Of a stretch of 64,000 bases of DNA, positions 106 to 55,583 are shown piece by piece. The DNA lies in contig CBDCFW010000006.1 in NCBI GenBank assembly GCA_965216465.1, forward strand, positions 1,235,334 to 1,299,333, written 5' to 3'. The stretch is from Bacteroidia bacterium (GTDB lineage: Bacteria > Bacteroidota > Bacteroidia > NS11-12g > UBA9320). Both the position numbers and the translations under genes were made by a program. The stretch's first letter is position 1, and each line of letters starts with the position of its first letter. A model generated the notes under the pieces. That model was not told the DNA's origin. It saw nothing but the letters and a program-made list of their open reading frames with translations, and made no database searches.

Positions 106-363
106 GGTTGCTACATGTTTTAAAGTTTGCGTGCAAGGTAGAGCAAACAAGTGTGTGGAGACTTGAAGATGCTCAACTTCTTGTATGATTTTGATTCGGG
201 CCATACAATTTAGTAATTTTTGACCAATTTGCAGCGTATGTGATGTAAAATATCAATGGGAGTAATCATAGCAGAGAGCAAGTTATATCAGTGATTATAA
301 TGACGCATATCACTTATGCGGTTCGAACTTGAGTGAACCTTTGTAGTATAATTTTGAATTAAA

Positions 364-1647
364 ATGGTCAACTATCACCGAGCAACAGCAGACGAAGCAT
401 TGCGCCTGCTTCAATCCGATCAAAATGTCTTCATTCACTCTGCAGTTGCTGCCCCTCAGTTACTTATAAATGCAATGGTTGCTGCAGCACCTCGACTAAA
501 AAATGTAAAAATATATCATTTACATACCAATTCAGAGGCTCCTTATGTGCAACCTGAGTATGAAGGAATATTCGAAGTGAATTCCCTTTTTATTGGCGGA
601 AATGTGAGAAAGGCAACGTGGGAAGGACGAGCTAATTTTATTCCCGTTTTTTTAAGTGATATTCCTTATTTGTTTAGAAGCGGAAAGATTAAGCTCGATG
701 TTGCATTGATTCAAGTGTCTCCTCCTGACAAGCACGGTTACTGCTCAATGGGTACTAGTGTTGATGCATCTAGGGCTGCTATGCAGACTGCTAAAATAGT
801 AATTGCTCAGGTGAATAAACATATGCCTAGAACACATGGAGATGGGCTTATTCATTATAGTGAAATTGATGCTATGGTTGATGGAGATTCTCCACTACCA
901 GAAGTTATTCTTCCCGAACCTAACCCGATTGAAGACCGAATCGGCGAGCATGTTGCCGCATTAATTGAAGATGGTTCAACACTTCAAATGGGTATAGGTA
1001 CCATACCGAATTCAGTCTTAACTAAGCTTAATGGCCATAAAGATCTAGGAATTCACACAGAGATGTTTAGTGATGGGGTAATTCCCCTCGTTGAATCAGG
1101 TGTAATAAACAATCGCCTAAAGGCCGTTCACCCTGGGAAAATTGTTTCTGGATTTGTAATGGGCTCTCAGAAATTGTATGATTTTATTGATGACAATCCT
1201 TTAGTAAACATGCTTGATATTGCTTATGTAAACGACGTTAGAACCATAAGGAAAAACCCAAAAGCGGTTTCAATAAACAGTGCAATTGAAGTGGATTTAA
1301 CCGGGCAAGTGTGTGCTGACTCTATAGGTTCTCGATTTTACAGTGGGGTAGGTGGTCAGATGGACTTTATACGTGGGGCATCCTTATCTCCTGGAGGTAA
1401 ACCCATTATAGCACTACCTTCCAGAACACTAAAAGGTGGGCGTAAAATTGTTTCCATTCTTAAACCTGGGGCAGGAGTAGTAACAACTAGAGCTCACGTA
1501 CATTATGTAGCAACGGAATATGGCGTAGCAGACCTTTACGGCAAGCCAATCAAGCAAAGAATAAAAGAGATGATTGAAATAGCTCATCCTGACGATCAAG
1601 AGCAACTCGATGAAGAAGCTTTCTCAATTTATCGACTTCACCATTAA
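364..1647 (+). CDS. Acetyl-CoA hydrolase/transferase family (4-hydroxybutyrate CoA-transferase-like)
   Basis: Motifs TLQMGIG, DLGIHTEM, SGVGGQMDF. Confidence 0.93.
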   Translation: MVNYHRATADEALRLLQSDQNVFIHSAVAAPQLLINAMVAAAPRLKNVKIYHLHTNSEAPYVQPEYEGIFEVNSLFIGGNVRKATWEGRANFIPVFLSDIPYLFRSGKIKLDVALIQVSPPDKHGYCSMGTSVDASRAAMQTAKIVIAQVNKHMPRTHGDGLIHYSEIDAMVDGDSPLPEVILPEPNPIEDRIGEHVAALIEDGSTLQMGIGTIPNSVLTKLNGHKDLGIHTEMFSDGVIPLVESGVINNRLKAVHPGKIVSGFVMGSQKLYDFIDDNPLVNMLDIAYVNDVRTIRKNPKAVSINSAIEVDLTGQVCADSIGSRFYSGVGGQMDFIRGASLSPGGKPIIALPSRTLKGGRKIVSILKPGAGVVTTRAHVHYVATEYGVADLYGKPIKQRIKEMIEIAHPDDQEQLDEEAFSIYRLHH

Positions 1648-35701: not shown

Positions 35702-35719
35702 AAAATTAAAAAAGTACAA

Positions 35720-36298: not shown

Positions 36299-36335
36299 AC
36301 TTATTCTATGGAAACTCTAATTTAAAACTAAAACT

Positions 36336-38498: not shown

Positions 38499-38502
38499 GA
38501 CG

Positions 38503-39159
38503 ATGAAAAACCTACTCACCCTTCTTCTTCTGGGGTTATTTTGGAATGCCACTGCCCAAGATGAGCAAATTGCATCCATGCTCCAAAAAGTTGACCAATC
38601 AATGCGGTCTTCAGAAAATCTTCATTTGGAGTTTACTACTCAAGTCAAGAATTTACAAAGTGGAGAAGTGGAAGAGAATACAACGACTTATTGGAAATCA
38701 GGAAATAAAATTAGAACAAAGCTTGGGAGCTATGAATCTGTCTCAGACGGAAAAGTGCAATTGCACATTGATCACGACGAGAAAAAGATTATTGCCAACA
38801 AGCCTGCAGCAGTAGAAAGTATTGCAGAAGTTGATTTTCAATCCTCACTTAAGTTTTGTGCCAAAAAACTCTTGAAAGATACCTTGGGTCAGCATTTGAT
38901 AGAATTGCACTTCGATTCAAGCTATCCGATTTCTACATTATTTATCTATCTGAAAAAAGATAAATTAACCAAGGTGGTGATTAGCTCTCGTGGATCAACA
39001 CCAACTTTAGTAACCGTTTCTTACGATGTTTTTGACACGTCACCAACTATTTCATCTAAAAAGTTTGATGTGAAAAAATTCATAAACTACAAGAACGGAA
39101 ATATGACTCAAACAATTGACTACCAATCCTATAAACTCTATAATCTATTGAAAGCTTAA
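38503..39159 (+). CDS. LolA-like periplasmic protein
   Basis: Signal peptide; KSGNKIR...VSDGK..LHIDHDEKKII. Confidence 0.55.
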   Translation: MKNLLTLLLLGLFWNATAQDEQIASMLQKVDQSMRSSENLHLEFTTQVKNLQSGEVEENTTTYWKSGNKIRTKLGSYESVSDGKVQLHIDHDEKKIIANKPAAVESIAEVDFQSSLKFCAKKLLKDTLGQHLIELHFDSSYPISTLFIYLKKDKLTKVVISSRGSTPTLVTVSYDVFDTSPTISSKKFDVKKFINYKNGNMTQTIDYQSYKLYNLLKA

Positions 39160-42100: not shown

Positions 42101-45100
42101 CAACTGTGGTAGCGAATATCACGCAACTCCACCACTGCCAGCAAGCTGTACTGCTTGGGGAGCTGATGATGACATCTGGCAAACCTATGTTTCATATTAC
42201 TTAAGTGCTAAGCAGTTTATACAAAAAGAAATTGCGGATGACTGGGTTATATCTACGGGCCGACTAGGATTTAATGAATGTATTGGCAATGAGAATTATT
42301 CGCCTTCTTCAAGTAATTTGCAAAAGCTTGGGACAGCTCCTGTTTCTGGAACTCCTGCATTTGGAGGGTTAGAAGGTTTGCTAGAACCATGTGGCAATTT
42401 AAATTACACCAAATATCTTAATAAAAAACCACGTTTTGATTTAAAAGCAGTAACCGTAAAAGTGGACGAGGAACTCGCACGCTTTAATAGATCGTACCAG
42501 TTCAATGCCTGTCCGCTTGCCTTAGATTTTGAATTCTTCTTGAATGAGCTAACCAGTAGAGACAAGCTTAAAACGACACAAACTAATCTGGACTTAAAAG
42601 ATTTCAAAAGCCTCACTCCTGCATTGTCGGATGTTATCTTTGGAACAAATCCCGCATCTTCCATTACTTGGAATAGTTCAACAACCGGTAACGTTTTAAC
42701 CGGAAGTTTTCAATACAACTCCAATACGGTTAATGTAAGCTTAACACTAAGCAATGGAACATGGAACGATGTAACTCGAATTTTTGCAATTTCTGATGTT
42801 GTGTTTGACGATGTTTCCGTTCCGAACACATCCAATTTCAACCTTAAAGCATTGCAGTATAATACAACCACAGAAGAGTTTTTACAATCTACAATTGTTG
42901 GCTCTTTTGATGTTGATTTGAATAAGGATTGCAAGTTTGAGGATGAGTGTGAACCTACCGATTACGCATTTACAATTCGCGATATTTTGGCAGGATTAAG
43001 TTTGAACGCAAATGATTTAACCTCTACAACTGCGATTCCCCTTGAAACAACCTATTCTACTTTTATAAAACGATTTGTTCGAAATGAACTAACTGTGGCT
43101 ACAAATCTTGAGTATACCTTTAATAGTACCTCTAACAAGGGAACCATCCATCAGCAAGGAGCAGTTGGTTCTGGAATTGATATTAACTTCCCAAGTGGGT
43201 TTAGTGTTTCAAGCATTGCAACAATATACGGAATTGAGGTGGATAAAGACAAGGTAGCAAACGGTTTAGTAATCTTATACATTGATAGTAATGGAGATAA
43301 ACAAAGCGTTAAAGTAACCGTAAGCAAGGGTCAAACAGCGAAGTGTTTTGACCCTACAAAGATGTTTTGTGAAGATATTCGCTATGATGTAACTCGCGAC
43401 TTTGCCTCTTTATTAGAATACTTAATCGAAAATCCTTCAGTAAACAATGTAAACCTGAACGACAACAACTTGTATACGGCTTTACTTCAGAGTTATATAG
43501 GACACGGTGATGCCGTATTCAATGTTCCTGTAAGTGGCAATGATGGAAACGAATTGACTACAACAATTGATGTATTCGAAACGGGAACAGCAAACAAGTT
43601 GACTACATGTGAGCTTAAACTTTATAGAAAAATGTATGGTGACGTGCAGACCGATATTCCATTGACTGATATTACCGATATTGGCGAGTTGCAAGTAGAC
43701 ATGGAAAATCTTCACATGGGAGACGCCCATCACTTTACTGTTTTAGCCGTATTTAATAACAAAACAGATTATGCTGAAGAAATTCATGGTTATATATCCT
43801 GCCTTCCTTTATTTGATTGTGCTGATTGTGTAGAGAAGGAAGAGGATGATGCAGAAAAGAAATGTGGAAACTACGAATATGAGTTATATTATCATGAAAT
43901 GATGCAACTTGGTATGGAAGGTTTGATTATACCTTATTCTGATGATTTTCCTTGCTCTTGTGTTGAAGAGTATTTATACTATGTAAAACTTGCCGTGCTC
44001 AGTGCAAATAGCAATTCCACAGCGATTACCAATGCAGTGCCTCAATTAAATCCAACATTGGGAATTGATGAGTTTGTTTTACCACCGTACAACTGTACGG
44101 TTACCTTTCCTGACTGTGATGTCACTCAGGAAATTCTACCAAATATCGTAGCTGAAGTCAATAATTTCAATGCACAATATGCACAATACTTTCCTACTTT
44201 AAGCCCGCCTAGTCTGGTAACTGGTGATGATTGTCATTGTGCTGCTAAATATTTAATATATCTAGAATTATGGACTTCCTTGTATGGAACCAATGTTCCG
44301 CCAATCCCACCATCAGCCATACCCATTCCTCCATTGAGCTATAACAATTTTCAAATTGGAGGTTGCCAAATTGATCAGTGTCTGGTAAACTATAAAATGT
44401 ATCGTGACAAAACCACTTCTGTAGGCGGAGTGCCTATTGTATTTGATCCTGCAATTGGGTGTGATTGTTGGAAACATTATGCACTCGAAGCGAATTTGCT
44501 AACCCCTCACTTATCAACTGATATTACAAATTATTGCAGCAATCGATTGATAAACTTAACATCTTCTTATCCTCCAAAATATGACCACGTTAATTTCGAT
44601 GAGGAATTGACCATGTTTGAGGTCAGCTATGCAGATGATGCACCTATTGAATCAAGATCAAGAAGCTTTAATGAATGCGAACCGCCCGAATTTGATGTGT
44701 TTAGAGTGAATATTCCAGACCGTTGTTCAACATGGCTCGACAATCTCGCAGAAGAAAATGCACGTGTTCGCTATGAGCAGCAAATGGACCAGCTTAGACA
44801 GCAATTCCATAACGGCTACATGGATAAGTGTTTGAATATTGACGAGAGTTTAGACTTTGTAATGCCTATTCAAGACTACCATTACACGCTCTACTATTAC
44901 GATCAAGCTGGGAATTTGGTCAGAACCGTACCTCCAGCAGGTGTGGTCGTTGAAACGGATGTTAATGATCTAGCTGAAATCAAAGAAGATAGAATTAACA
45001 AAACGAGAAATTATGCAACCTTGCACGGACTTTCAACAGTTTACGAATACAACAGTTTACAACAGTTAACCAGACAACATGTACCAGACAACGACCCAAT

Positions 45101-48100
45101 GGATGACAAGTATGTTCTTCGTTCTAGTGGATTGCCAACTGATTTCGAAACGCATGATGTTGTATTTACTGATCCAACCCACGCAATCCTAGTAGGAACC
45201 AACACTGACGATGAGACTGAAATTTACCAGTCGTCAGATGCAGGAGAAACTTGGGTGCGACATAACGGTTTAAGAACCGACGACATACTCGATGTTGAGA
45301 TGTATGATGCGAATCAAGGATTTGCAGTTGGATCGGGCGGCGTATTCCTACATACAAAAGATGCTGGAGACAATTGGAAAATAGTTTACCATTCAGATCT
45401 AATCGGCAAAGACTTTACTAGCTTAGATTTAGCTATAGGTGTAAGCCCTGACCCTAAAGGAATTATAGCAGGCAATGATGCAGAGACCATTGAATTTGAA
45501 TATACTACCTCTTCAGGAGCATATGCTTTTAGCATTCTTGGCTTCAATACCACAGCTGACGAAGGTGACTTTGTAGACCTCGAGTTTAAAGATGCTAATG
45601 TAGCCTATGCTATCGTCAATACCGCAACAGATCAGCGTGTATTAAGCATAGATCTTTCTGCAGGTACACCGAAATGGACAAACTGGGATATTGATGAAAA
45701 TGTAAGACTCACCAACCTAAATGACGGGTGGTTCTATGGATCGGGTTCTTCCGATGGATATGTAGTAGGTGACGATGGAGTAGTGGCTCAAGCCGGAAAT
45801 GTAGGAGATAATTTTGATCAAATTGCAACTGGATTGACTGCTGATTTATTGCAGGTATACTTTAAAGATGTTAACAACGGAATAGCCTTAGGTGATGACG
45901 GATTTATTTACAGAACCACAAACGCTGGACAACAATGGACGGCTATGAATGGTATAGGCTCATACAATCAATTCCATATCTACGACGAAGCAAACGGTTT
46001 AGGATTTGCGGTTGGAGATGATGGAATAATTGCGGCAGTAGATATTTCGGAAGCCTATGTTAATCGACTGAGCTATACCCCTTTAAAATCTGACGATTTT
46101 ACTGCGGTTGGATTTGAAGATGATGAGCATGGATTAATCGGAACTTCTTCAGGAAAGGTATTCCGGGTTGAGAATCAACCTAGCGGTGTTTACTTTGATG
46201 ATTTGTTCTATGGCTCTGCTTCTTCAATCGAGCAACTTCATCTTGAAGGAAGTGTCGGGATAGTTCTAAACGCTGGTGCGGAAATGAAACGAATAGATAT
46301 TTCAGGATCTGTTGGAACCTACTCTATATCAACACCAACACTATTAAAATCAGGTGTAGAGAATTGGAGTATTGAAGGATCTACTCTATTTGCCTTAACA
46401 ACGGCTGCATCTCCAGCGGTGGAAGAATACAGTTCAACCAATCCCCAAGCGTACTCCATATCAACTACTCCATCACACCCCATTACTCAAAAGTCTTCAG
46501 GAGAAACGTTGCATTTTGTGGCAAACAGAACGTCAACCGATTACTTTGCTGGTGGTACAAATGGAGAACTTAACAGAGAGCTTTCATCAACTTCATCAAA
46601 TGTTTCTAAAAATACCAGTCCTCTGACATTAACAAGTTTGGATGTTGAGGGTAATTATGTTGCATTGGTGGCTGAAGATGGTAGATTATATGTTTCAGAA
46701 TCGCAGTTTGATGATATACGATTACGAGCGTCAAATCACCGTGGTGATTTGTTTGATTTAGACATTAACAGCTCGGGTGAAGGCTTTGCTATTGCTGATG
46801 ATTGTAAACTGTATGCACTTACATCAGGTGTGATTACAACCTCTGAGCTGCCCATTGACGCACATGCCGTTACCTTCGATAATCTAAATTCTCTTTGGGT
46901 TGCAAACGATAACTTTGTGTATGAAACGGCTACTGGCGGTGTCTCATGGCAGCTCACAGCGGAAGCTGAAGACGACCGAAGTTTTAGAACGATAAAACGA
47001 TTCAACAATGAATTGGTTTATGCAGGAACTGACGGTCTGGTATCTACCAACGATGGTAATCTGGATCAAGGATTTATTACATCTGATGTTCTTTACGATA
47101 TGGATTTAGAAGGTGCATATGGTCTCCTTGGAGGAGAAAATGGACTTTCATTTAGCTCAACAAGTTTCGGAGAATATTGGAACATCAATCCATACGCTCC
47201 TGATCATATACAAGGGGTGCATGTAAAAGATGAGAACACGGCATATTTCTTAGGAAGTAATGGCTTAAATGAACAGGCCAATATTTATTATACTTCTGTT
47301 ATATCGATGGGACTTGCATCCACTTCAGGAATTACCTACTATGCCGCAGATGAAAACCACAGAGGAACTGAAGTTTTAGTTTCTACCGATGGATTGTATC
47401 GCAAGCTTGATGGACAGTCTTGGGTGTTGATGCAATCTAGTGCAGTGCTCAAAGATGTATCTGTGCAAAGGAGTACAGCCTTTGCTGTTGGAGACAATAA
47501 GCAGATATACCGAATTTTAAATGTAAACCAATCCTCTGGTTATACACTCGATAATCTTACAACACTGTCTGGTACTAACATTCCAGGTTTACCAGCATCC
47601 AATTATACAAAAGTGGTGCAATACGGTAACAACGATGCATTTGTAGTCGGAACAAGTGGGTCTATAATAAAAACAGTAAACGCTGGGGCAGAATGGAATG
47701 CTTATGATTCAGATATTAATGAAACCAATACGAACGATGATATATACGCTATTGCGGTCTCAGGCAGAGAGAATATTATAATTGGAGGTGATGCCAAGTT
47801 TGCAAATGCAATTTATGATCGCGGCGGATTCGCTACCTCACTCTTCTACTATGATCGATTGGGAAGAATGGTAGCAAGTCAAAATGCGAATCAATTTGAC
47901 ACCGCTCACTCGTATACAATTTATGATGAAATTGGAAGGATTAAAGAAGTTGGAGAGAAGGTAAGCAGTACGCCAATGGAGGACAATTACGTGGATGGAC
48001 AAATGGACGATGCACTATTTACCGCATGGTTAACAGCTGGAGCCTTTAATACCCGAAAAGAAATTACGCGTACGCATTACGATGAGCAAACAGTAGCTCC

Positions 48101-51100
48101 TGCTGCAGAAATTATTCAAGTCAACCTCCGCAAGCGTGTGGCGAGTATGACCTATGAGGCCGTTTATGATGGATCAGACCTTACCTACGATGCAGCAACG
48201 CACTATACCTATGATATTCATGGCAACGTTGACCACCTGGTTCAAGAAATTCCAGAATTGGATGCTATAGGCCAGGCATTTAAGCATATATACTATGAAT
48301 ATGATCTCGTGAGCGGCAACGTAAACAAGGTGTCTTACAATCCAGGTGAAGATGATGCATACTATCACAAATACGAGTACGATGCAGACAATCGAATTGT
48401 TGATGTTTATACGAGTATTGACGATTGCATTTGGGACAACGATGCAAACTACAACTACTATAAACATGGGCCACTGGCACGTACAGAAATAGGAGACCTT
48501 AAAGTACAAGGCCAAGACTTTGCTTATACTATTCATGGATGGTTAAAAGGAGTGAATAGCAGCACCCTGGATCGAACGAGAGACATGGGTAGAGACGGTG
48601 ATATTTCCATTACGAATCATCCATACAAGTATTATGGAGGTGATGTGTATGGTTATTCATTAGGATATTATGAATCTGGTGCGAGTGACTATCAATCTAT
48701 AACGTCGTTCACCACAGCCAATTATTTCTTGGCTCAAGTTTCAGGCTCTGATCTGCTTAATGAACGTTGGGACTTGTACAATGGAAATATAGGTTACATG
48801 GTAACAGCTATTCCTGATGTAACGATATACAATTCAGGATATACTATCACAGCTGCTCCTCGAGCAAGTGCTTACAAATACGATCAATTGAACAGAATAA
48901 TAAGCAATAGAAGCTTCGACAATATCGATATGGTGAATAATTTCTGGCAGTCTGGAACTGGGGCGAGTAACAGTTATAGAACAGATTATACCTACGATGC
49001 TATGGGTAATATACTTACTCTTCAGAGGTACAATGAAACTCAGTTGATAGATGATTTACAGTACTATTATGACAACAATAACGGCTCTGGGACGTTGCAA
49101 AGCAACAAGCTTTATCATGTACACGATTATGCTGGTAAGGTAATGACCAATGATATTGCTGGGCTTGATACGGTGAAATGGGATACAGTAGAAACACAAA
49201 ACAACTTCCAATACGACAAGCTAGGAAACTTAGTGAAGGATAAGGAGGAATTGATAGATACGATATTATGGACCGTGTATGGCAAGATTGCTGAAATTCA
49301 CAGAAGAACGGATACCGTGCATCAAAAGGCTGATCTTGCCTTTAAGTATGATGCATCTGGCAATCGAATAATCAAAACAGTTAAACCAAGAGATACGTTT
49401 GGAGTAATAAAGCCGTCGGATGATTGGATTCATACCTACTACCTGCGGGATGCAAGTGGTAATATTATGGCGGTTTACAACTATGTTGGAGATGACTTCT
49501 CATGGGAAGAAGCTCACATATATGGTAGCAGTAGAATTGGAGTTTACAAGCCAAGCAAAGTTTTAGAAGACAATGATTGCACGCTTGATTTCGACGTAGA
49601 TACTATGTGGACAAGTGCCATGGGCCAACAAGCCTTTGACGATGAAATGGTCAACGCATTTAACAGCACGGGCTTGCAGCATGTTTCTACATTCTTAATG
49701 AGCAACTTGCAATACATCAACCAGTCAGTTGAAAATGCAAGAACTACAGCACCAAGCAAAACTGAATTTGCAGCATACTTGGATGGATTAGAACGTTATT
49801 TATGTAAATTTAAAGCATATACAATTCCTGACGATTCAACCTTCCACAATGAACTTTTACCGGAAATTGATGATGAATTTGACTTGAATTGGATGTTGCC
49901 AAAGATGGATATAACCAATGTTTCATCCATAGAAACGTATTGGGACGGTGCCGTGGTAAGAATACAAAAATCGTTGAATCAGATTTATGGTTACCAAGCA
50001 CCTGATGAAGTTTCATTACGCTTGTTAGGAAGCAAGAGGTATGAGTTAAGCAATCATCTGGGCAATGTTTTGGTAACGGTGACGGACAAAAAAGTTGCTG
50101 TGGCCGATATATCCGGATTGATTATAGAACAGTTCAATGCTGAGATAAAAACCATCTCCGATTACTATCCATTTGGGATGCTGATTGAAGAACGGTCAAT
50201 TTCTGGGGTGTCAAATGTGAGTAAATTAACCCACTCTCCGAACCCTACTTACACCTTTGTAACTCAGTTACCGAATGGTGATATTCAGTGGACAAAACAC
50301 GCTTGGAAAGGCGGCGGTGTATCGCAAGAAGTATACACTGAAAATTGTCGAGTAGTGTGGAACGATCCATTGGGTGTAGGCGGTACCCGAGCACATGCAG
50401 GACTATCGAGTCAAACCTATTCGTCCATTTGGAATATAGAATATCGTATCACCACAGATGTATCTCAGACCAATTATGGGTATCGTGTAATTGGCGGTTC
50501 ATCTGGCCTAACAGGAATAGCAGTACAGGCTGGCGACCAAGCCGTTGTAGAACGATTGAATGGAATTATTTATCTTTACATCATCAGAGCCAACGGAACA
50601 CGAATAGACATTGTAAATTTCGCAGAATCCTATGCAGATATGCCTTTGCGAGCGGCATACTACTGTGATATTGCATCGGCAACCAACGTCCTCACCATGG
50701 ATTTGGATTTCTATGGCCCCAATGGGTATCGATTTGGGTTTAATGGTTATGAAAATGAACCAAAAGTAGCTGGAGAAGGAAGTGTTATTGATTTTGGGGC
50801 TAGAATATATGACTCAAGGCTAGGAAGGTTTCATAGCACAGATCCGTATTTTAAGATGTTGCCAACATTCAGCACCTATGGTTATGCTATCAGTAATCCA
50901 GTATTGATGAAAGATGGAAATGGTATGGGGCCCATACCATTTCGCTTTAAAGAATTTCTAAGCGATGATTCATATTATTTTACTGGTCTTCTAGCAGGAA
51001 TCGGAGATGGCCTCGTTGAAAGCGTTGATATGATGCTTGGTGTAGTGGAAGCCAAAGATGCTTGGAATCCAACCGCAGGTCTATTTTATACTGCACGTGG

Positions 51101-51686
51101 TGCTGAGATTCGTGATCAACATATTGAATTTGGAAAACTTGCAATTAATTTAATGACTGACGAGGAACTCCAGAAGGAGGTTTATAACTCGCTAAAGACA
51201 GAATTTGGAGACTGGTGGGACGAAACTACTTTTGACGGTACAACAGCAGAAGCGGGATATAATCATGGCAAGATAATCTTTGAAGGCGTTGCAGCAATTA
51301 TTGGAGTATCTGAACTTAACTATTTAATGAAGACTGGACAGTTCTCGGTCAGGGGCCTTGCTAAAATTGCCAGAGCTAGGTATCATAAGATTATAAGTAC
51401 AATAGACGATGAGATTGTTGGATTGAAGACCCTTGAAGAAAAGGCTAGAAGAGCTTATGACATTAGACACGAAGCAAGAATCGTTTCAAGAGAAGCATCC
51501 GGAAGAATTAATAGTATAATTGCGAAAACGAGAGATATGATTAGATATGGGAAAACAGATGGTCCTTCATTTGACGATTTGTTTAAAAAGCATAAAGATA
51601 ATGGTTTGTCAGATGATGAGGCATATGAGAAAATCATAGAAAGTGCCAAGAAGACTAGCACAGTGTTTGACAAATTAGCGGAGTAA
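39162..51686 (+). CDS. Giant Rhs/YD polymorphic toxin (4174 aa) with signal peptide and C-terminal toxin CT1
   Basis: YD repeats, [48 protein letters not shown]. Confidence 0.93.
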   Translation: MKRLKLILAGILLYSASSFGAFYPTSQVQNSVNFGTTLTLQELNYSSLPGMLGYTNVSVKNYVQLSVDWDNYTYHNKYSYLIEIELKTKNSALQQSTQVITIPIEYDPNANPGTSYSDKSTYRFTDAHQIDAKVLSAYDVINKTPVTLASLPSNILMTSYIGIERFEDFNTSTTVCPSTSLITHAGSPSPDELELEWSAVAGAEEYEVQWTFVDNYADDFGAIPASSIGYDFDQNCSKVRLSAETKFNISLIYERGYVIYRVRAIGRSQTDFKHHILGDWEVPDNATSLTTLSCGYYYLTDAFESGLNWQYSMAYAEEGKRKEVISYYDGANKNRQAVTATNSKDTLAIVGESVYDYNGRKAIDILPVPTQSPALRYYEDFNMNAGASQHYGWEDFDKDGSSDCESALGALSTSSGAAQYYSSNNPDQTDENAFIPDAGGYPFAQVEYTPDNTGRVRRQGGVGETHQLGADPWADKSTKYFYGKPTQIELDRLFGNEVGYAVHYKKNMVVDPNGQVSISYLNLAGQVIATSLSGEKPGNVKQLPNFENSISLSSELLNKNHLGNYISNKINQDFDGIEFRTTFVTGVAGIHTFTYSTTAQQFFDNCLGSFCMDCAYDLVFEVWDDCGNLVTSKTQYIGPSELNMSCETVSYTSPAWDVQLTKGSYNIVKRLEINKEAYDYYLNEYLSESNNTCITTMADLIVEEKNKLDYTGCEIDCDDCVDELGSLDEFIAKNYGTEEEWLEEYNNCVAACQGVSLCENIFQMMKMDVTPGAQYAKYQIDGEVGVDPSAYPLSLLNESNNLPHPNANWRNPVKLDGSGDEYRDEDGEISRIYLSRDEEGNYTPACNPAFILFDPVEGPYTKPENLTNVEDFIFYWQQSWAESLVYYHPEYGYVEWCQDFNLKREGQNVMNSDEFDNFISSQDNYAEANSNNLTTDDIDHLLDMDPFFKIFTTEKANMQALLADFNGTSYDAMDFAALVNNCGSEYHATPPLPASCTAWGADDDIWQTYVSYYLSAKQFIQKEIADDWVISTGRLGFNECIGNENYSPSSSNLQKLGTAPVSGTPAFGGLEGLLEPCGNLNYTKYLNKKPRFDLKAVTVKVDEELARFNRSYQFNACPLALDFEFFLNELTSRDKLKTTQTNLDLKDFKSLTPALSDVIFGTNPASSITWNSSTTGNVLTGSFQYNSNTVNVSLTLSNGTWNDVTRIFAISDVVFDDVSVPNTSNFNLKALQYNTTTEEFLQSTIVGSFDVDLNKDCKFEDECEPTDYAFTIRDILAGLSLNANDLTSTTAIPLETTYSTFIKRFVRNELTVATNLEYTFNSTSNKGTIHQQGAVGSGIDINFPSGFSVSSIATIYGIEVDKDKVANGLVILYIDSNGDKQSVKVTVSKGQTAKCFDPTKMFCEDIRYDVTRDFASLLEYLIENPSVNNVNLNDNNLYTALLQSYIGHGDAVFNVPVSGNDGNELTTTIDVFETGTANKLTTCELKLYRKMYGDVQTDIPLTDITDIGELQVDMENLHMGDAHHFTVLAVFNNKTDYAEEIHGYISCLPLFDCADCVEKEEDDAEKKCGNYEYELYYHEMMQLGMEGLIIPYSDDFPCSCVEEYLYYVKLAVLSANSNSTAITNAVPQLNPTLGIDEFVLPPYNCTVTFPDCDVTQEILPNIVAEVNNFNAQYAQYFPTLSPPSLVTGDDCHCAAKYLIYLELWTSLYGTNVPPIPPSAIPIPPLSYNNFQIGGCQIDQCLVNYKMYRDKTTSVGGVPIVFDPAIGCDCWKHYALEANLLTPHLSTDITNYCSNRLINLTSSYPPKYDHVNFDEELTMFEVSYADDAPIESRSRSFNECEPPEFDVFRVNIPDRCSTWLDNLAEENARVRYEQQMDQLRQQFHNGYMDKCLNIDESLDFVMPIQDYHYTLYYYDQAGNLVRTVPPAGVVVETDVNDLAEIKEDRINKTRNYATLHGLSTVYEYNSLQQLTRQHVPDNDPMDDKYVLRSSGLPTDFETHDVVFTDPTHAILVGTNTDDETEIYQSSDAGETWVRHNGLRTDDILDVEMYDANQGFAVGSGGVFLHTKDAGDNWKIVYHSDLIGKDFTSLDLAIGVSPDPKGIIAGNDAETIEFEYTTSSGAYAFSILGFNTTADEGDFVDLEFKDANVAYAIVNTATDQRVLSIDLSAGTPKWTNWDIDENVRLTNLNDGWFYGSGSSDGYVVGDDGVVAQAGNVGDNFDQIATGLTADLLQVYFKDVNNGIALGDDGFIYRTTNAGQQWTAMNGIGSYNQFHIYDEANGLGFAVGDDGIIAAVDISEAYVNRLSYTPLKSDDFTAVGFEDDEHGLIGTSSGKVFRVENQPSGVYFDDLFYGSASSIEQLHLEGSVGIVLNAGAEMKRIDISGSVGTYSISTPTLLKSGVENWSIEGSTLFALTTAASPAVEEYSSTNPQAYSISTTPSHPITQKSSGETLHFVANRTSTDYFAGGTNGELNRELSSTSSNVSKNTSPLTLTSLDVEGNYVALVAEDGRLYVSESQFDDIRLRASNHRGDLFDLDINSSGEGFAIADDCKLYALTSGVITTSELPIDAHAVTFDNLNSLWVANDNFVYETATGGVSWQLTAEAEDDRSFRTIKRFNNELVYAGTDGLVSTNDGNLDQGFITSDVLYDMDLEGAYGLLGGENGLSFSSTSFGEYWNINPYAPDHIQGVHVKDENTAYFLGSNGLNEQANIYYTSVISMGLASTSGITYYAADENHRGTEVLVSTDGLYRKLDGQSWVLMQSSAVLKDVSVQRSTAFAVGDNKQIYRILNVNQSSGYTLDNLTTLSGTNIPGLPASNYTKVVQYGNNDAFVVGTSGSIIKTVNAGAEWNAYDSDINETNTNDDIYAIAVSGRENIIIGGDAKFANAIYDRGGFATSLFYYDRLGRMVASQNANQFDTAHSYTIYDEIGRIKEVGEKVSSTPMEDNYVDGQMDDALFTAWLTAGAFNTRKEITRTHYDEQTVAPAAEIIQVNLRKRVASMTYEAVYDGSDLTYDAATHYTYDIHGNVDHLVQEIPELDAIGQAFKHIYYEYDLVSGNVNKVSYNPGEDDAYYHKYEYDADNRIVDVYTSIDDCIWDNDANYNYYKHGPLARTEIGDLKVQGQDFAYTIHGWLKGVNSSTLDRTRDMGRDGDISITNHPYKYYGGDVYGYSLGYYESGASDYQSITSFTTANYFLAQVSGSDLLNERWDLYNGNIGYMVTAIPDVTIYNSGYTITAAPRASAYKYDQLNRIISNRSFDNIDMVNNFWQSGTGASNSYRTDYTYDAMGNILTLQRYNETQLIDDLQYYYDNNNGSGTLQSNKLYHVHDYAGKVMTNDIAGLDTVKWDTVETQNNFQYDKLGNLVKDKEELIDTILWTVYGKIAEIHRRTDTVHQKADLAFKYDASGNRIIKTVKPRDTFGVIKPSDDWIHTYYLRDASGNIMAVYNYVGDDFSWEEAHIYGSSRIGVYKPSKVLEDNDCTLDFDVDTMWTSAMGQQAFDDEMVNAFNSTGLQHVSTFLMSNLQYINQSVENARTTAPSKTEFAAYLDGLERYLCKFKAYTIPDDSTFHNELLPEIDDEFDLNWMLPKMDITNVSSIETYWDGAVVRIQKSLNQIYGYQAPDEVSLRLLGSKRYELSNHLGNVLVTVTDKKVAVADISGLIIEQFNAEIKTISDYYPFGMLIEERSISGVSNVSKLTHSPNPTYTFVTQLPNGDIQWTKHAWKGGGVSQEVYTENCRVVWNDPLGVGGTRAHAGLSSQTYSSIWNIEYRITTDVSQTNYGYRVIGGSSGLTGIAVQAGDQAVVERLNGIIYLYIIRANGTRIDIVNFAESYADMPLRAAYYCDIASATNVLTMDLDFYGPNGYRFGFNGYENEPKVAGEGSVIDFGARIYDSRLGRFHSTDPYFKMLPTFSTYGYAISNPVLMKDGNGMGPIPFRFKEFLSDDSYYFTGLLAGIGDGLVESVDMMLGVVEAKDAWNPTAGLFYTARGAEIRDQHIEFGKLAINLMTDEELQKEVYNSLKTEFGDWWDETTFDGTTAEAGYNHGKIIFEGVAAIIGVSELNYLMKTGQFSVRGLAKIARARYHKIISTIDDEIVGLKTLEEKARRAYDIRHEARIVSREASGRINSIIAKTRDMIRYGKTDGPSFDDLFKKHKDNGLSDDEAYEKIIESAKKTSTVFDKLAE
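43378..50740. repeat. Left arm of a >=7.3-kb inverted repeat (pairs with 56637-64000)
   Basis: Protein and off-frame ORFs are mirror-identical; coordinate sum about 107377. Confidence 0.95.
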
Positions 51687-51970
51687 TGAAAATTGAAAGG
51701 CATTTTAACAGGTTAACTTTGCAACTTCATGGAGATTGCGAGTTTGAAGAGTTTTTTGAAATTGCCGAAAGGTTTCAAAAAATAATGAATATTGGGAAGT
51801 TCTCTAAAAGTGACTCATTTGATAATTTATACTGGAAGTTTAGATTTAATTGCACAACCTACTACCTTAATTATAGTGTCGATTTTGGGGTGTTCGTGTA
51901 TGCCAAATACAAGTGGTCAGAGGAAAGTATAAGAAAAGTGAAGAAATATTTAATAGAAAATGGCTGGTGA
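51686..51970 (+). CDS. Cytoplasmic immunity protein for CT1 (DUF3630-like)
   Basis: TAATG overlap with the toxin stop codon; small, no signal peptide. Confidence 0.7.
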   Translation: MKIERHFNRLTLQLHGDCEFEEFFEIAERFQKIMNIGKFSKSDSFDNLYWKFRFNCTTYYLNYSVDFGVFVYAKYKWSEESIRKVKKYLIENGW

Positions 51971-52256
51971 GCAGATTAAACTCACAACTGGGATTTGTCA
52001 GATACCATTGATAAGTTAATGATAAATAGATTTGCTACTAAATTAGTAATCGGCATTGCTCTTCCCAAATGTTAGAGGACTAATGTGTTAATTATATTTA
52101 GCTTAGAGTACTTTACCAATATACACTAAGAAGAAATCAATGCGATTTTTAAACAGTTTCTAGCGGGTTTTCGTAAGCATAAGCTGATTCATATTAAATG
52201 AAACTCATTGACGCCAAAATTTCATAGTTTTAGACTAAAAATATAGTCACTTTTTG

Positions 52257-53756
52257 TATCCATTTGGGATGCTGATTGAAGAACGGTCGATTTCTGGAGT
52301 GTCAAATGTGAGTAAATTAACCCACTCACCGAACCCTTCTTACACCTTTGTAACCCAGTTACCGAATGGTGATATTCAGTGGACAGGCCATGCTTGGAAA
52401 GGTGGGGGTGTATCCAAAGAACGATACACCGAGAACTGCAGAGTAGTATGGAATGACCCACTCAGTTTTAAAGGTTCTTACAGCCATTTTGGATTAACAT
52501 CGCTTAACGATGCGTCCATCTGGAATATAGAGTATAGAATAACCTACTACCCCGGTTCATCAGCCAATTATACCTATCGACCATTGGGTGGCACAGGTGT
52601 AAACACAGGTGTAGCCGTACAGGCCGGTGACCAAGCCGTTGTTGAACGATTGGATGGAATTATTTATTTTTACGTCATCAGAGCCAACGGAATACGAATA
52701 GATTTTGGAAACGTAGCTGAATCCAATGCCGACATGCCACTAAGAGCAGGCTACTACGCAGGTGTTGGTTCTACAACTAACGTCCTCACCATGGACTTGG
52801 ATTTCTATGGACCCAATGGGTATCGATTTGGGTTTAATGGTTATGAAAATGAACCAAAAGTAGCTGGAGAAGGAAGTGTTATTGATTTTGGGGCTAGAAT
52901 ATATGACTCAAGGCTAGGAAGGTTTTTATCAATCGATCCTTGGGATTACAAATATGGTTGGCAGTCAACATATGCATATTTCAAAAATTCACCTGCAATT
53001 GTTGTTGATTTTAGAGGTTTAGGTGGTAATACCGAGAAAAAATCTAACTCTCAGCCTACGACATTAGTGATTAAAATAGTGCCTGCAGGAAAAGTTAAAA
53101 TGAAAACACGAATAATTAGTCGCAAAACTTTGTTAATTCAAGCTGAAAGCATTGAGTTAGCCAATGAGAAGCTAAATGAATACATGAAGAGTAATCCCGA
53201 TCAGAAAAAATTTCAAAAAATGATATTAATGGCTCATGCTTCCCCAAGAACAGTTAGACGAGAAGGAGAGAAAGTTCGAACAGGGAAGTATTCTTTGAGA
53301 CTGTTTGCATATAAAACTAAGAATGGAAAAACATATAGGGGACTTAATTCAGACAACATGGGATCCGAGGATAAAGGTAGTGAGGTTGCGGCACTAGAAA
53401 GTATTTTTTCGAATTTGGTCGAAAATGGAAGTTGCGTTATTTTAGGTTGTCAACTGGCGGACGATCAACAAGTAATCAAGGATATTTTTGGTATCTTCCC
53501 CCAAAGCAATGTAAAACTTTACACTGATGGTGATGTGACCACAGGAGGGCTTAAGACTAAAAAGTATACTAGAAGAATTGATGGCAAAGTAGTGTCTTCA
53601 AGAGAAGAAGAGAGGGCTGTAGTCTATACTAAGGATGAAGCATACGATGAAGGTTGGACGTTAACGACAAGGGGGCCAGATGGCGTTCCCACGAATACGA
53701 GTATAGGGCAGTTGGAAGTTGACACTTCTACCCAAGAAGTAATTACAATTAAATAA
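52257..53756 (+). CDS. Orphan Rhs cassette with toxin CT2 (putative His/Cys peptidase)
   Basis: 52257-52925 homologous to 50166-50831; SPAIVVDFRG; ILMAHA...VILGC; possible ATG at 52269. Confidence 0.85.
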   Translation, partial: YPFGMLIEERSISGVSNVSKLTHSPNPSYTFVTQLPNGDIQWTGHAWKGGGVSKERYTENCRVVWNDPLSFKGSYSHFGLTSLNDASIWNIEYRITYYPGSSANYTYRPLGGTGVNTGVAVQAGDQAVVERLDGIIYFYVIRANGIRIDFGNVAESNADMPLRAGYYAGVGSTTNVLTMDLDFYGPNGYRFGFNGYENEPKVAGEGSVIDFGARIYDSRLGRFLSIDPWDYKYGWQSTYAYFKNSPAIVVDFRGLGGNTEKKSNSQPTTLVIKIVPAGKVKMKTRIISRKTLLIQAESIELANEKLNEYMKSNPDQKKFQKMILMAHASPRTVRREGEKVRTGKYSLRLFAYKTKNGKTYRGLNSDNMGSEDKGSEVAALESIFSNLVENGSCVILGCQLADDQQVIKDIFGIFPQSNVKLYTDGDVTTGGLKTKKYTRRIDGKVVSSREEERAVVYTKDEAYDEGWTLTTRGPDGVPTNTSIGQLEVDTSTQEVITIK

Positions 53757-53758
53757 TT

Positions 53759-54265
53759 ATGAAGAGCAAAATTATAATCATCACCTTGTTAGTTGCAAGT
53801 TGTTCAAGTTCTAAGTACTGTAGCTTCAAAACTGACCCTGACAAGGAAATTTACAGAGGGGAAGATGAAATTGAAGAAATCAATGCTGTACAGGAAAGGG
53901 GGTCTCTTTTCAATCTTAAAATAGGAGATTTGACAGAAATGATAGATTCGCTAGCACACTTTCATTTCGGAGATTCTTCTATCAGCTACAAAACAAGTTA
54001 CCATTACAAGCTCACTTGGGATTCAACAGGAACCATAATTGAATTCTATGATTGGCAGAGTCCAAGTCTATTTGGAAATTCTATTGAGCAACTTTTTAAA
54101 AGCATTCAACCATTGAATCCACCAGTCTTCCTAGAAAGCTATAAAAGCTTCGGAACATATGAATCGAAAGCTAATATATATGTGGTGTTTAAGAACTATA
54201 AAAGTGTGATTAAAATATACTATGACAAAGCAGTTCTTCCCGAACAAGTATTTAAAGAACCCTAA
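53759..54265 (+). CDS. Lipoprotein immunity candidate for CT2
   Basis: Starts 2 nt after the toxin stop; lipobox LVASC. Confidence 0.7.
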   Translation: MKSKIIIITLLVASCSSSKYCSFKTDPDKEIYRGEDEIEEINAVQERGSLFNLKIGDLTEMIDSLAHFHFGDSSISYKTSYHYKLTWDSTGTIIEFYDWQSPSLFGNSIEQLFKSIQPLNPPVFLESYKSFGTYESKANIYVVFKNYKSVIKIYYDKAVLPEQVFKEP

Positions 54266-54458: not shown

Positions 54459-54629
54459 TATTCAAATCGATACCTGTCCGGGCCATAGAAATCCAGGCCC
54501 ATGGTGAGGACATTGGTAGTAGAGCCAACACCAGCGTAGTAGCCAGCTCTTAGTGGCATGTCAGCATAGGATTCAACTACGTTTCCAAAATCTATTCGTG
54601 TTCCGTTTGCTCTTATACGTAAAAATAAA
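54459..54629 (-). pseudogene. Degenerate Rhs cassette remnant (insert allele B)
   Basis: Reverse complement reads [52 protein letters not shown]. Confidence 0.88.
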
Positions 54630-54768
54630 AACATTGACCTAGCTACGTTATTTCATTAGTGAGGTCTAGTTTTTTGAAGAATGAATCTCTTGAAATACTG
54701 TAAGTTTTAAAAGTCTTTCTTAATCGATTATCTTTTAACTGCCTTCGTAAGTCCTTATCAATAAATAC

Positions 54769-54816
54769 TTTCGACCACTTCAGGGTCTCCTGCAAGGGAC
54801 CCTGAAGTGGTCGAAA
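54769..54816. repeat. REP-like palindrome, copy 2 (19-bp stem)
   Basis: TTTCGACCACTTCAGGGTC-TCCTGCAAGG-GACCCTGAAGTGGTCGAAA. Confidence 0.8.
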
Positions 54817-54869
54817 AGTTACAACCTGAAATTAGTTAGGGTATTTCTAGTTTTGGCAAGATTCCAACA

Positions 54870-55583
54870 TTACGTGCAATCACAGTCTCTAATAATTTTT
54901 TTTATCGGCTCAATTGATTGTATCGTTTTTATATGATAAATTGGAACTGAAGTCTCTGTTACTCTTACTTTAGTTCTTCGTCCTTTTACCCTTAGCTCTT
55001 TTATTTTTCTTCTTCTAGTGGATTCAATCTGATTCAATTGTGAATAGCCGAGGGAAATTTTAAATACATAAATAGTTTCACAGAGATTTAGGCTATCTAC
55101 GTCTCTTTTTCTTCTTGTTTTGTTGCCAAGGTAGCCTCTCTTCCTTAATTTTTTCATCAATACTCTTTTATGGTCGCAGTAAAGTCCTGATATAGAATCT
55201 GTTGATGAAAACTCAGAGCCTTTTAATGTTGAATCAAATGAAATTTGAGTTATAAATCCTTCAAAGCTTGAAAGCTTATATCGGCCATTTAAATAATCAA
55301 TAGAATCGTGAACTAGGTGTGTTAGTCTCGAACTTAAGTAGTAAATAAAATAGCCGCCTTGATAATGAAATTTATTATTTGAGGTGTCAAACTTATGTAT
55401 ACCTTTAACAGCTTCTCCTGGAAAATAGTCCCAACATTCTACAGAATTTATTGGACAAGAAGTCAAAGCCAGTACAAATGTGTCGTATATTATTTGATTG
55501 TTGATAATTTTATCTGACACTTGACCTTTTGATGAAATCATGATCAAAAACATAACAAGAAGTATAGCATTTCTAATCATCAT
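54870..55583 (-). CDS. Exported immunity candidate for CT3
   Basis: ATGA overlap with the toxin stop; signal peptide. Confidence 0.7.

Follow-up and report, generated by a model that had tools for sequence, protein, structure and literature searches.

A predicted ConA-like domain inserted in the Rhs core of a giant Bacteroidia contact toxin, directly downstream of a putative cassette boundary

The central finding of this work is that a 177-aa segment interrupting the Rhs core of a giant Rhs/YD contact toxin is, according to confident structure models, a genuine domain that folds independently as a ConA-like (jelly-roll) beta-sandwich and belongs to a very rare family so far without a name. 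Sequence comparison of its copies points to a conserved palindromic site in YPFGM codons, directly upstream of the domain, as the cassette boundary. Because of this position, exchange at the boundary would replace the domain together with the toxin, and each stored cassette would comprise a binding-type domain, plug, toxin and immunity gene. We consider it rather probable that the insert decorates the outside of the shell at the plug pole as a domain of adhesion type. An initial annotation of this DNA had read the segment as a switchable receptor-binding module; of that reading, the fold and the boundary upstream of the domain stand, whereas the hypervariable loops and a strict coupling of target and warhead are not supported.

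Binding-type domains inserted into YD shells are already known. What sets this one apart is the unnamed, very rare ConA-like family, the interruption of the Rhs core itself and the place on the exchangeable side of a cassette boundary. Little is understood of the way in which Sec-exported Rhs toxins find and enter their targets, and if the domain binds the target cell, such toxins, which work without an injection machine, could inherit and exchange recognition and toxin as one unit.

Host gene and copies of the insert

The window, that is, the whole stretch of 64,000 nucleotides analysed, contains the main gene of a Bacteroidia-lineage bacterium with 38% G+C. Its product is a giant Rhs/YD contact toxin with a signal-peptide-like N-terminus, DUF6443, a BNR/Ycf48-like propeller region, the YD shell, the insert, the Rhs core and the C-terminal toxin (Table 1). 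Exactly 177 aa lie between the 12-residue stretch that starts at nt 50160 and the YRFGF motif that starts at nt 50727, close to the roughly 175 aa first estimated. The coordinates proposed at that time, 50197-50725, had captured the right segment, and were out of frame because they fall 1 base short at each end.

Table 1. Features of the Rhs locus, with positions in the window
Feature	Position	Strand	Remarks
Main Rhs/YD toxin gene	39162-51686	+	4174 aa
12-residue conserved stretch, last before insert	50160-50195	+	contains palindromic site
Palindromic site TATCCATTTGGGATG in YPFGM codons	50166-50180	+	homology to orphan cassettes begins there
Insert, allele A, main gene	50196-50726	+	177-aa predicted ConA-like beta-sandwich domain
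Remainder of Rhs-associated core, YRFGF...KDGNGM	50727-50927	+	TIGR03696 positions 15/16-76
C-terminal toxin region, main gene	50928-51686	+	252 aa, without Pfam match
94-aa ORF, presumed immunity gene	51686-51970	+	function presumed from position
Orphan cassette 2	52254-53756	+	500 aa: site, allele B, Rhs core, different toxin
Palindromic site of orphan 2	52257-52271	+	
Insert, allele B, orphan 2	52287-52820	+	178 aa; predicted fold same as allele A
168-aa ORF 3' of orphan 2, presumed immunity gene	53759-54265	+	presumed from position
B-like insert remnant	54464-54634	-	last 57 aa only, ends YRF + stop
Hairpin element	54770-54817	not assigned	48 nt
237-aa ORF after inverted copy, presumed immunity gene	54870-55583	-	presumed from position
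Largest open frame of inverted copy	55580-62929	-	2449 aa; allele A + third toxin
Insert, allele A, inverted copy	56651-57181	-	1 aa different from main gene
Palindromic site of inverted copy	57197-57211	-	
Inverted repeat of main-gene 43378-50740	56637-64000	-	interrupted by contig end

Searching the window by tblastn returned, besides the main copy (50160-50741, 100%), a copy on the minus strand at 57217-56636 (99.5% over 194 aa), one at 52257-52835 (77.2% over 193 aa) and a fragment at 54634-54464, also on the minus strand (68.4% over 57 aa). The fragment shares 46 of 54 residues with allele B vs 39 of 57 with allele A and is B-like; the distribution proposed earlier, with A in the main gene and the inverted copy and B in orphan 2 and the remnant, was thus confirmed. 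Outside the window, contig C5 of the same genome has a fifth copy (753285-753815), which is identical to that of the main gene. The inverted repeat is 99.77% identical to the main gene over 7365 nt, with 14 mismatches and 3 gaps. The 94-aa ORF overlaps the main-gene stop by 1 base and has a weak DUF3630 match, below the cut-off, and the 168-aa ORF gave no Pfam match. Along its full length, orphan 2 is 41% identical to P0005, an orphan cassette from a metagenome.

Predicted fold and family membership

Both alleles were modelled with AF2 from alignments of only 9 rows, and they gave the same confident all-beta sandwich with the same strand order (pLDDT 87.1 for A vs 87.0 for B; pTM 0.86 vs 0.87), in line with the SPRY/ConA call made from sequence. 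Comparison with 48,161 chains by VIA-align yielded 149 with Z>=8. The best was the GH16-like 5dzg (Z 13.8, 158 aligned, 3.1 A), accompanied by the PRYSPRY domains of MID1 (Z 13.3), RIPLET (12.8), TRIM14 (12.7), TRIM25 (12.6) and the human SPRY 2yyo (12.5), and then by lectins, CBM66 and a phage baseplate protein. The best 50 entries comprise lectins, SPRY, GH16, CBM and similar sandwiches, which align over 142-170 of the 177 residues. Foldseek against the PDB gave at least 464 matches at E<=0.001, with legume lectins, PRYSPRY and GH16 first. In BFVD a structural protein of a Cellulophaga phage ranked first (TMq 0.71), with many tail proteins after it, and the ESM Atlas returned, as leads only, unnamed clusters at 0.92-0.93 (two of the three best viral) and GH43_C2/DUF1349 at 0.88. 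The predicted models thus have the two-sheet jelly-roll of the ConA-like lectin/glucanase fold and superpose on its members over most of the domain. A shared fold by itself shows no function; the catalytic motif of GH16 enzymes is ExDxxE, and reading all 177 and 178 residues of the two alleles gave no E.D..E.

At the sequence level, six members of the family scanned against Pfam at E<=10 gave weak irrelevant matches only (BBP2 and a phage head-tail joining family) and no match to SPRY/B30.2 (PF00622). A six-frame search for PF00622 at E<=1e-5 gave 0 matches in this genome, and 0 of 301 genomes of the phylum matched, a result of little weight since the control genomes gave no match either. The best E value of a PDB profile search was 0.45, for a GH11 xylanase. 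The PRY-SPRY/B30.2 domains of TRIM, MID1/2 and RIPLET are of the same fold class as the insert (Z 12-13.3, 144-155 residues aligned), and its motif GD..V.....G.I.Y is one that we take to resemble the SPRY core motif; yet the identity in the structural alignments is 6-12%, the Pfam SPRY model does not match, and a specific kinship to SPRY is not shown, because a GH16-like protein scores equally well.

The family amounts to 7 proteins among 1.84 billion representatives and to 3 of the 191 genomes of the order. A protein-homologue search with the domain and the family alignment, covering longer proteins only, had orphan 2 alone among the matches listed. Single-domain searching of genome contigs other than those of its own genome gave no match, alignment-based searching of metagenome contigs found only contig L013, and a search with P0005 recovered one relative, L012, at the level of the core only.

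Position in the Rhs core and proposed role

TIGR03696, the model of the Rhs-associated core, was matched only at positions 15/16-76, 3' of the insert, in the three cassettes scanned and in all four cores of the genome. The three cassettes scored 37.8-40.5 bits against a curated cut-off of 32.5, which places the host gene among proteins with this core. Positions 1-14 are set apart from the rest by the insert, whereas most Rhs cores in 66 genomes of the family match positions 1-75/76 as one stretch of ~250 nt. Likewise, the spacing from PFGM to Y[RK][FY][GA]F is 11-13 aa in eight insert-free cassettes vs 182 aa here, so that the flanking motifs are normally only a few residues apart, as had been supposed. 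With this widened gap, and with further copies that interrupt other YD hairpins in genome G025, the insert resembles SGS1-type receptor domains in being inserted in YD/core sequence.

All four cassettes of this genome that have a core carry the insert, as does the remnant; the claim that every toxin cassette does so holds for this genome and fails as a general statement, for on metagenome contig L013 one insert-bearing cassette adjoins two without the insert. Since both kinds occur there, at least some cassettes of this Rhs subfamily can do without the domain. The same-genus homologue P0003 of G025 has four copies of the insert, located at a YD hairpin that is free of it in the window protein, in the helical insert and, as a tandem pair, at the site that the insert occupies in the window. 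The segment is therefore an insertable module, the copies in P0003 standing at several sites.

The closest structural precedent is mosquito SGS1, in which, as described in PMC9935623, a CBM, a lectin-CRD, a wedge and propeller 2 are YD-repeat insertions on the outer surface of the shell, whose top is plugged by the Rhs core. The likeness consists in beta-sandwich binding-type domains inserted in the YD-repeat sequence of a Tc/Rhs-type cocoon (PMC9935623), and the SGS1 stretch Y.P[YF]G...[FY]R[YF]TG (2653-2710) aligns to the insert-free form of the present core. The SGS1 domains differ in being Ig-like sandwiches placed mid-shell, whereas the insert is ConA-like and inside the Rhs core; moreover, as PMC9935623 presents them, they stand outside any exchangeable cassette and their binding function is only proposed. 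Cavity volume and this precedent suggest that our domain would be outside the shell at the plug pole, where it may act as a putative adhesion or ligand-binding decoration. The solved Rhs1 shell is reported to have a cavity of ~28,000 A^3 and toxins of 9-20 kDa (PMC8636562). Given a cavity of this size, taken from a T6SS Rhs shell that is possibly smaller than the shell here, neither a folded domain of ~19.5 kDa together with a 252-aa toxin nor four such domains would be expected to fit inside.

A different role could be imagined for a domain inserted inside the Rhs-associated core itself, at TIGR03696 position ~15: it might cap the C-terminal plug in a structural or regulatory role, stabilise or gate the pole, for example in autoproteolysis or toxin release, and bind no target. 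According to PMC8636562 and PMC9935623, the core in solved shells is the embedded C-terminal plug plus aspartyl-protease region, and the former describes a DPxGL-type aspartyl-protease autocleavage motif at the end of the core. The cap would also fit the loose keeping of that motif in our cassettes, whose cores read at that place KDGNGM (main gene), VDFRGL (orphan 2) and IDIEGA (inverted copy), with an acidic residue and a glycine retained across the three. Nevertheless, G025 has the same domain at two other shell places far from the plug, most cassettes of the bacterial family work without an insert at this position, and the domain comes closest in fold to binding modules, not to caps. We therefore regard a cap as improbable and prefer the external decoration.

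Divergence of alleles A and B

Alleles A and B differ at 43 of the 177 aligned positions, B having one residue more, and the shared framework with discrete patches described initially is present with all four of the patch pairs quoted. The differences fall at the most variable columns of the family (mean entropy 2.0 vs 1.45 bits, p 8e-6), are mildly clustered (runs test, p 0.02) and affect none of the 9 columns that are invariant in the other seven family members. With 18 differences in predicted strands and 25 outside, loop enrichment was rejected as not significant (Fisher p 0.38), and a placement of the variation in loops is not supported; by strand-loop parity the four patches would lie at both ends of the modelled sandwich. 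Overall dN/dS between A and B is 0.28, with saturated synonymous sites in the centre of the domain; the lowest values (0.07-0.08) come from the two most conserved 15-codon windows, and windows with variable patches give 0.6-0.83, none exceeding 1. A second B-type variant from metagenome contigs (B'), ~8% divergent from B in DNA, keeps the B patches; of the 29 codon changes listed, 27 are synonymous and 2 non-synonymous. "Hypervariable" is thus a misnomer: by these codon comparisons, A and B are two old, conserved types under purifying selection, not diversifying loops. As such they are a natural pair for testing the joint exchange of recognition and toxin.

The selection estimates bear on two readings. 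One is that the insert is a neutral passenger of a single ancestral cassette, spread by upstream exchange, and that A and B differ by drift. It would agree with the rarity of the family, with the optional presence of the insert within the L013 array and with differences at the least constrained positions. However, the strong purifying selection (overall, in the two conserved windows and in B'), the confident and well-ordered model, the four copies in G025 and the retention of the domain across a cassette lineage only 41% identical make it very improbable, and we consider it already disfavoured. The other is that A and B differ in receptor-binding specificity through variable surface loops on one face, so that a cassette swap would retarget the toxin as well as change it. 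Two discrete conserved types whose B patches are kept in the diverged B' would suit functional patches, and the variable columns, the mild clustering, the boundary upstream of the domain and fold neighbours that include phage tail/baseplate proteins and PRY-SPRY binding domains point the same way. Against it stand the lack of enrichment outside strands, the probable spread of the patches over both ends of the sandwich, dN/dS values without sign of diversifying selection and, as set out below, evidence that domain and toxin are also shuffled separately; on balance we find retargeting doubtful.

Cassette boundary and recombinase

In orphan 2 and in the C5 copy, DNA homology with the main gene sets in within ~12 nt of 50166, and this boundary 5' of the domain bears out the idea that recombination would change domain and warhead. 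A strict coupling of the two is another matter. Two different toxins are found with allele A, and A in the main gene and B in orphan 2 have the core segment after YRFGF in common; crossovers therefore also occur downstream of the domain. The linkage of domain and toxin is at the same time long-standing, since orphan 2 and P0005 belong to one cassette lineage with 41% identity over domain and toxin alike.

A tyrosine recombinase gene (Pfam Phage_integrase, E 1.7e-07) has its stop codon 72-80 nt upstream of the motif [CT]ATCCnTT[TC]GGGATG in 5 loci of 4 genomes. This motif occurs at 7 sites in 35.3 kb (12 loci) vs ~0.5 expected, all at cassette 5' ends; cassettes bounded by a short conserved site next to a tyrosine recombinase gene thus make up a shufflon- or integron-like arrangement. 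Static footprints were seen on L013, with head-to-head cassettes sharing a common site, and on L017, with a perfect 12+12-nt palindrome around the site. Evidence of rearrangement was sought in Logan contigs at low depth (runs X1, X2 and X3), which break at repeats and cannot show absence. One contig of X3 joins 50073 to 50160 and so lacks the 86 bases that immediately precede the main-gene site, and one of X2 joins opposite strands at 52834 and 55900; in neither of these low-depth joints are two cassette-start sites linked. Contig C5 ends 40 nt after its first cassette.

From these observations we tentatively raise the possibility that, beyond homologous recombination, a dedicated tyrosine recombinase exchanges Rhs C-termini in this bacterial family at the near-palindrome ATCC-N5-GGAT in the YPFGM codons, in an in-frame integron- or shufflon-like system whose cassette here captured a ConA-like domain. 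If this is true, one recombination event at the palindromic site would replace the candidate target-binding module, plug, toxin and immunity gene together as one cassette. An active recombinase-linked site would also be a new way to diversify polymorphic toxins, and would account for genome assemblies breaking at such loci.

Known systems share some of these traits. In R64-type shufflons, the C-termini of PilV are switched by the Rci tyrosine recombinase. The present locus is similar in its alternative C-terminal segments of a surface protein, found in both orientations, with short 5' recombination sites and a tyrosine recombinase nearby; it differs in that the site is a near-palindrome in conserved codons, that the cassettes also bear a toxin and an immunity gene, and that no inversion was seen in the low-depth contigs. 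The CdiA toxins of contact-dependent inhibition have discrete conserved classes of binding region and exchangeable C-terminal toxin/immunity cassettes, the binding region lying far upstream of the exchange point and not being known from orphan cassettes. Our protein is likewise a contact toxin with discrete conserved types, but the candidate binding domain is here inside the cassette. Related precedent for adhesion-related domains in polymorphic toxins comes from Zhang et al. 2012 (PMC3482391), whose accessible text places laminin-G at N-termini, does not name ConA-like or SPRY-like domains and describes no domain inside the Rhs core or in orphan cassettes. In the rAID-1 system of Bacteroidia relatives, as reported, a tyrosine recombinase heads stored orphan immunity genes in an arrangement with integron-like features (bioRxiv 10.1101/471110; PMC12247911); the criteria given for it are an XerD-like recombinase >44% identical to BF9343_RS08045 followed by at least two co-oriented genes of <=41% GC (bioRxiv 10.1101/471110). 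There too a tyrosine recombinase heads stored genes of interbacterial conflict, whereas the neighbour of the recombinase here is an in-frame Rhs C-terminal cassette that starts inside the YPFGM codons.

The hairpin at 54770-54817 was considered as an attC-like cassette end, which was rejected as the default reading: three other intergenic places of the genome, none of them Rhs, have its 30-31-nt core as well, so that it looks like a generic intergenic hairpin. As a separate observation, contigs of X1 and X2 join the hairpin end at 54817 through TTATA to 52247.

Placement of the segment in the Rhs core

The 4174-aa product of the main gene has a signal-peptide-like N-terminus. Pfam places DUF6443 at aa 315-392 and also gives a propeller region of BNR/Ycf48 type and a weak RHS repeat, with neither a PAAR nor a VgrG domain seen, and NCBIfam adds the Rhs-associated core TIGR03696. 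Within this core, 177 aa separate a conserved 12-aa stretch containing YPFGM from YRFGF, a segment that the initial annotation had located correctly, except that each end was placed one base short (50197-50725). A tblastn search with the segment found four copies in the window, and a fifth copy is present elsewhere in the genome (see table). The remnant is B-like, with an identity of 46/54 to allele B against 39/57 to allele A, and the patch pairs previously quoted for the two alleles were confirmed on both sequences exactly as written.

Main features of the region and related sites (window positions unless a contig or locus is named)
Feature	Location	Strand	Observation
ORFs upstream of the Rhs gene	30272-39159		Four, co-oriented (1809, 192, 720 and 218 aa), immediately upstream
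Main gene	39162-51686	+	Single ORF
Insertion in YD shell	~49550-50030 (aa ~3465-3625)		~160 aa, mostly non-repeat, after IYGSSRIGV
YPFGM-containing stretch, start	50160		12 aa
Segment, main gene	50196-50726	+	tblastn
YRFGF, start	50727
Segment, inverted copy	57217-56636	minus	tblastn, 99.5% over 194 aa
Segment, orphan 2	52257-52835	+	tblastn, 77.2%
Segment, remnant	54634-54464	minus	tblastn, last 57 aa only
Segment, fifth copy	C5:753285-753815		Identical to main-gene copy
C-terminal toxin regions	50928-51686; 53022-53756; 55580-56440		No Pfam match in any of the three
Inverted repeat	56637-64000, against 43378-50740	minus	7.36 kb, 99.77% identity, 14 mismatches, 3 gaps
Hairpin	54770-54817		48 nt
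Hairpin core, recurrences	~25396-25426; G000:C5:744381-744410; G000:C5:742455-742485		30-31 nt, non-Rhs intergenic regions
Tyrosine recombinase	L002 (G000:C5:751785-754815), ORF 334..1398		354 aa, Pfam Phage_integrase E 1.7e-07
Head-to-head palindrome	L013 3935-3950		CATCCC-AAA-GGGATG
Extended palindrome	L017 ~1282-1294		Perfect over 12+12 nt
Lone site copy	G000:C3:58083-58106 (site at 58090)		With flanks

Several lines of evidence indicate that the segment is an insertion in the Rhs core, as judged by sequence comparison. The TIGR03696 match is restricted to profile positions 15/16-76, downstream of the segment, in each of the three scanned cassettes and each of the genome's four cores; Rhs cores are present in 29 of the 66 genomes of the bacterial family, and most of these core rows match positions 1-75/76 unbroken, over ~250 nt. 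As the initial annotation had stated, the flanking motifs usually lie only a few residues apart: from PFGM to Y[RK][FY][GA]F there are 11-13 aa in eight segment-free cassettes (two orphans of the metagenome contig L013, five recombinase-adjacent orphans of L014-L018 and the main gene of L019), against 182 aa here. On L013 itself, the two segment-free orphans read "...FGMGIKEREW.DSSF.YRF.FNG", and the adjoining cassette, P0005, reads "(G)MVIKERTW", ~170 aa and then "YRFAFNG". When compared with PDB sequences by phmmer, the segment-free form aligns with positions 2653-2710 of mosquito SGS1, in its Rhs core (E 0.002), and also, weakly, with T6SS Rhs cores.

The domain is rare. Among 1.84 billion representatives, phmmer matched seven proteins at E<=0.001, two of them from the window itself (P0002 and P0006), and a whole-genome profile search found the domain in 3 of 66 family genomes and 3 of 191 genomes of the order. 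P0004, P0005 and P0007 start at or just upstream of the PFGM motif, P0005 being confirmed as an orphan cassette, and P0008 has the last third of the domain only. P0003, a 3748-aa Rhs protein of the same-genus genome G025, carries four copies: the first breaks a YD hairpin at a place where the window protein is insert-free, the second lies inside a large helical insert, and the third and fourth form a tandem pair at the YPFGM/YRFGF site used here. The domain thus acts as a module able to occupy various hairpins of the shell.

Some further observations concern the surroundings of the gene. The homologue in G025 has a far longer version of the main protein's YD-shell insertion, and one of its copies of the ConA-like domain lies within it. 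None of the four upstream ORFs matched a Pfam family, the 720-aa one giving a weak RHS-repeat match below the cut-off. The window (G000:C6:1235334-1299333) finishes on the last base of the contig, and the inverted repeat runs off its end. Its gaps leave the reading frame in three or more pieces, so it represents a silent copy in decay or else a fault of assembly within a repeat. By eye, the toxin tip of the inverted copy holds the string HEAGHN, which resembles a metallopeptidase motif.

Predicted fold and probable role

Sequence-model searches gave no family name for the segment, and the Pfam SPRY model did not match it. AlphaFold2 models were built from an alignment of nine family sequences: allele A is predicted to be all-beta (pLDDT 87.1, pTM 0.86), and allele B (pLDDT 87.0, pTM 0.87) has the same strand order with a longer 88-93 loop. 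Comparison of the A model with 48,161 representative PDB chains returned 149 with Z>=8, headed by the GH16-like 5dzg (Z 13.8, 158 residues, 3.1 A) and including the PRY-SPRY domains of MID1 (13.3), RIPLET (12.8), TRIM14 (12.7) and TRIM25 (12.6), followed by thrombospondin, lichenase, ERGIC-53, VIP36, CBM66, legume-lectin-like domains and a mycobacteriophage baseplate protein. Foldseek was concordant, with at least 464 matches at E<=0.001, and the best match in a viral structure library was a Cellulophaga phage structural protein (TMq 0.71), then many tail proteins. The fold is thus that of the ConA-like lectin/glucanase sandwich, in agreement with the SPRY/ConA fold proposed initially, SPRY being one among several equally close neighbours. 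The catalytic motif of GH16 hydrolases is absent from the segment sequence.

Previous studies help to place such a domain. [quoted passage not shown] In SGS1, the Rhs core is described as an internal spiral plugging the top of the shell, and the CBM, lectin-CRD, wedge and propeller 2 as exterior segments inserted into YD repeats, putative receptor domains (PMC9935623). The insert described here enters ~15 profile positions into the Rhs core. A folded domain of ~19.5 kDa and a 252-aa toxin would hardly both be accommodated in an Rhs1-sized cavity, nor could the four domains of G025 be, which argues that the domain probably lies outside the shell, at the plug pole. With a signal-peptide-like start and neither PAAR nor VgrG seen, the protein would need some hold on its target. 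Zhang et al. (2012; PMC3482391) proposed an adhesion-type role for domains of lectin type that are embedded in RHS proteins, and adhesion or ligand binding would be the most economical reading of the present domain, as a candidate role.

Alleles A and B and their association with toxins

Alleles A and B differ at 43 of 177 aligned positions, B having one extra residue. Their DNA comparison is mosaic, with dS of about 0.1-0.2 in codons 1-45, 0.46 to saturation in codons 45-180 (except for 0.10 in the 15-codon window 135-150) and 0 to 0.26 in codons 180-225; the flanks have thus been homogenised around an anciently diverged centre. The dN/dS ratio is 0.28 overall. It falls to 0.07-0.08 in the two 15-codon windows of strongest conservation and is 0.6-0.83 where windows hold variable patches, no ratio being taken where dS was saturated. 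The differences show mild clustering (runs test p 0.02) and no enrichment outside predicted strands, which hold 18 of them against 25 elsewhere (Fisher p 0.38). They coincide with the columns that vary most across the remaining seven members of the family (mean entropy 2.0 vs 1.45 bits, p 8e-6), and none of the nine columns invariant in those members differs between A and B. Successive loops of a beta-sandwich alternate between its two ends; by this rule and the strand list of the A model, patches 60-68, 87-92 and 157-162 might share one end, with 71-76 and 98-105 opposite them, a weak inference.

A further B-type variant occurs in the metagenome contigs of one study (X1 record 4 and X3 record 20, depth 2.3-3.4). 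Among the 30 of its 73 differences from B that are listed, 29 codons are changed, 27 synonymously and two non-synonymously, both of the latter yielding the allele A residue; the B-specific patches are thus conserved over ~8% DNA divergence. Taken together, these comparisons show A and B to be two long-standing, stable types on which purifying selection acts, and not the hypervariable loops of the initial annotation.

The main gene and the inverted copy have allele A in common and diverge immediately past YRFGF, and orphan 2, whose insert differs from that of the main gene, is identical to it from YRFGF to LGRF and then diverges. These differing shared stretches imply three breakpoints or more, so that recombination has acted independently on domain type and on toxin. 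On the other hand, an identity of 41% between orphan 2 and P0005 extends over the entire cassette, both domain and toxin, so the unit of domain and toxin is old. Of the switchable receptor-binding module first proposed, the general form, a cassette-borne binding module, is plausible; the form with hypervariable loops and target switching is unsupported and partly contradicted.

Cassette boundary and tyrosine recombinase

Orphan 2 becomes homologous to the main gene in DNA sequence at 52257 (50166 in the main gene), and the C5 copy does so within ~12 nt of the same point. This boundary is TATCCATTTGGGATG, the YPFGM codons, and forms a near-palindrome of ATCC, five bases and GGAT. In 35.3 kb from 12 loci, ATCC-N5-GGAT occurs at seven places against ~0.5 expected, all seven at cassette 5' ends, and it is absent from L019-L023. 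The third codon bases of Tyr/His and Gly fall in the palindrome arms and are invariant, those of Pro and Phe fall in the spacer and vary, and GGG is the rarest glycine codon in the window's genome (9.3%). On L013, two head-to-head orphan cassettes, one with and one without the insert, have the palindrome in common, and on L017 the protein reads HHHPFGMMMH across its palindrome; both arrangements look like footprints of inversion at the site.

The recombinase gene on C5, to which the loci L014-L018 are related, stops 72 nt short of the site, on its upstream side. Of the 66 family genomes, 9 have homologues at E<=1e-20, 11 of the 14 non-self places lying within 2 kb of an Rhs core. At five loci of four genomes, the recombinase stop codon stands 72, 80, 72, 77 and 77 nt upstream of [CT]ATCCnTT[TC]GGGATG, the exact start of Rhs homology in the adjoining orphan, and the intergenic sequence is otherwise unconserved. 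This arrangement looks like site-specific cassette exchange, for which the nearest described systems are rAID-1 and shufflons. Among the matches listed by full-text literature searches, no paper dealt with recombinase-linked Rhs cassettes and none combined Rhs with SPRY. No rearrangement was observed in the metagenome runs, which were covered as contigs.

The lone site copy on C3, GATTACTATCCTTTTGGGATGC, has no Rhs gene upstream and reads ...DYYPFGMHIQNG-stop. In X1 and X2 contigs, the end of the hairpin is joined via TTATA to 52247, which precedes the orphan-2 site by ten bases; this joint could reflect a tandem or circular form, or a further B-type cassette copy preceded by a hairpin of this kind.
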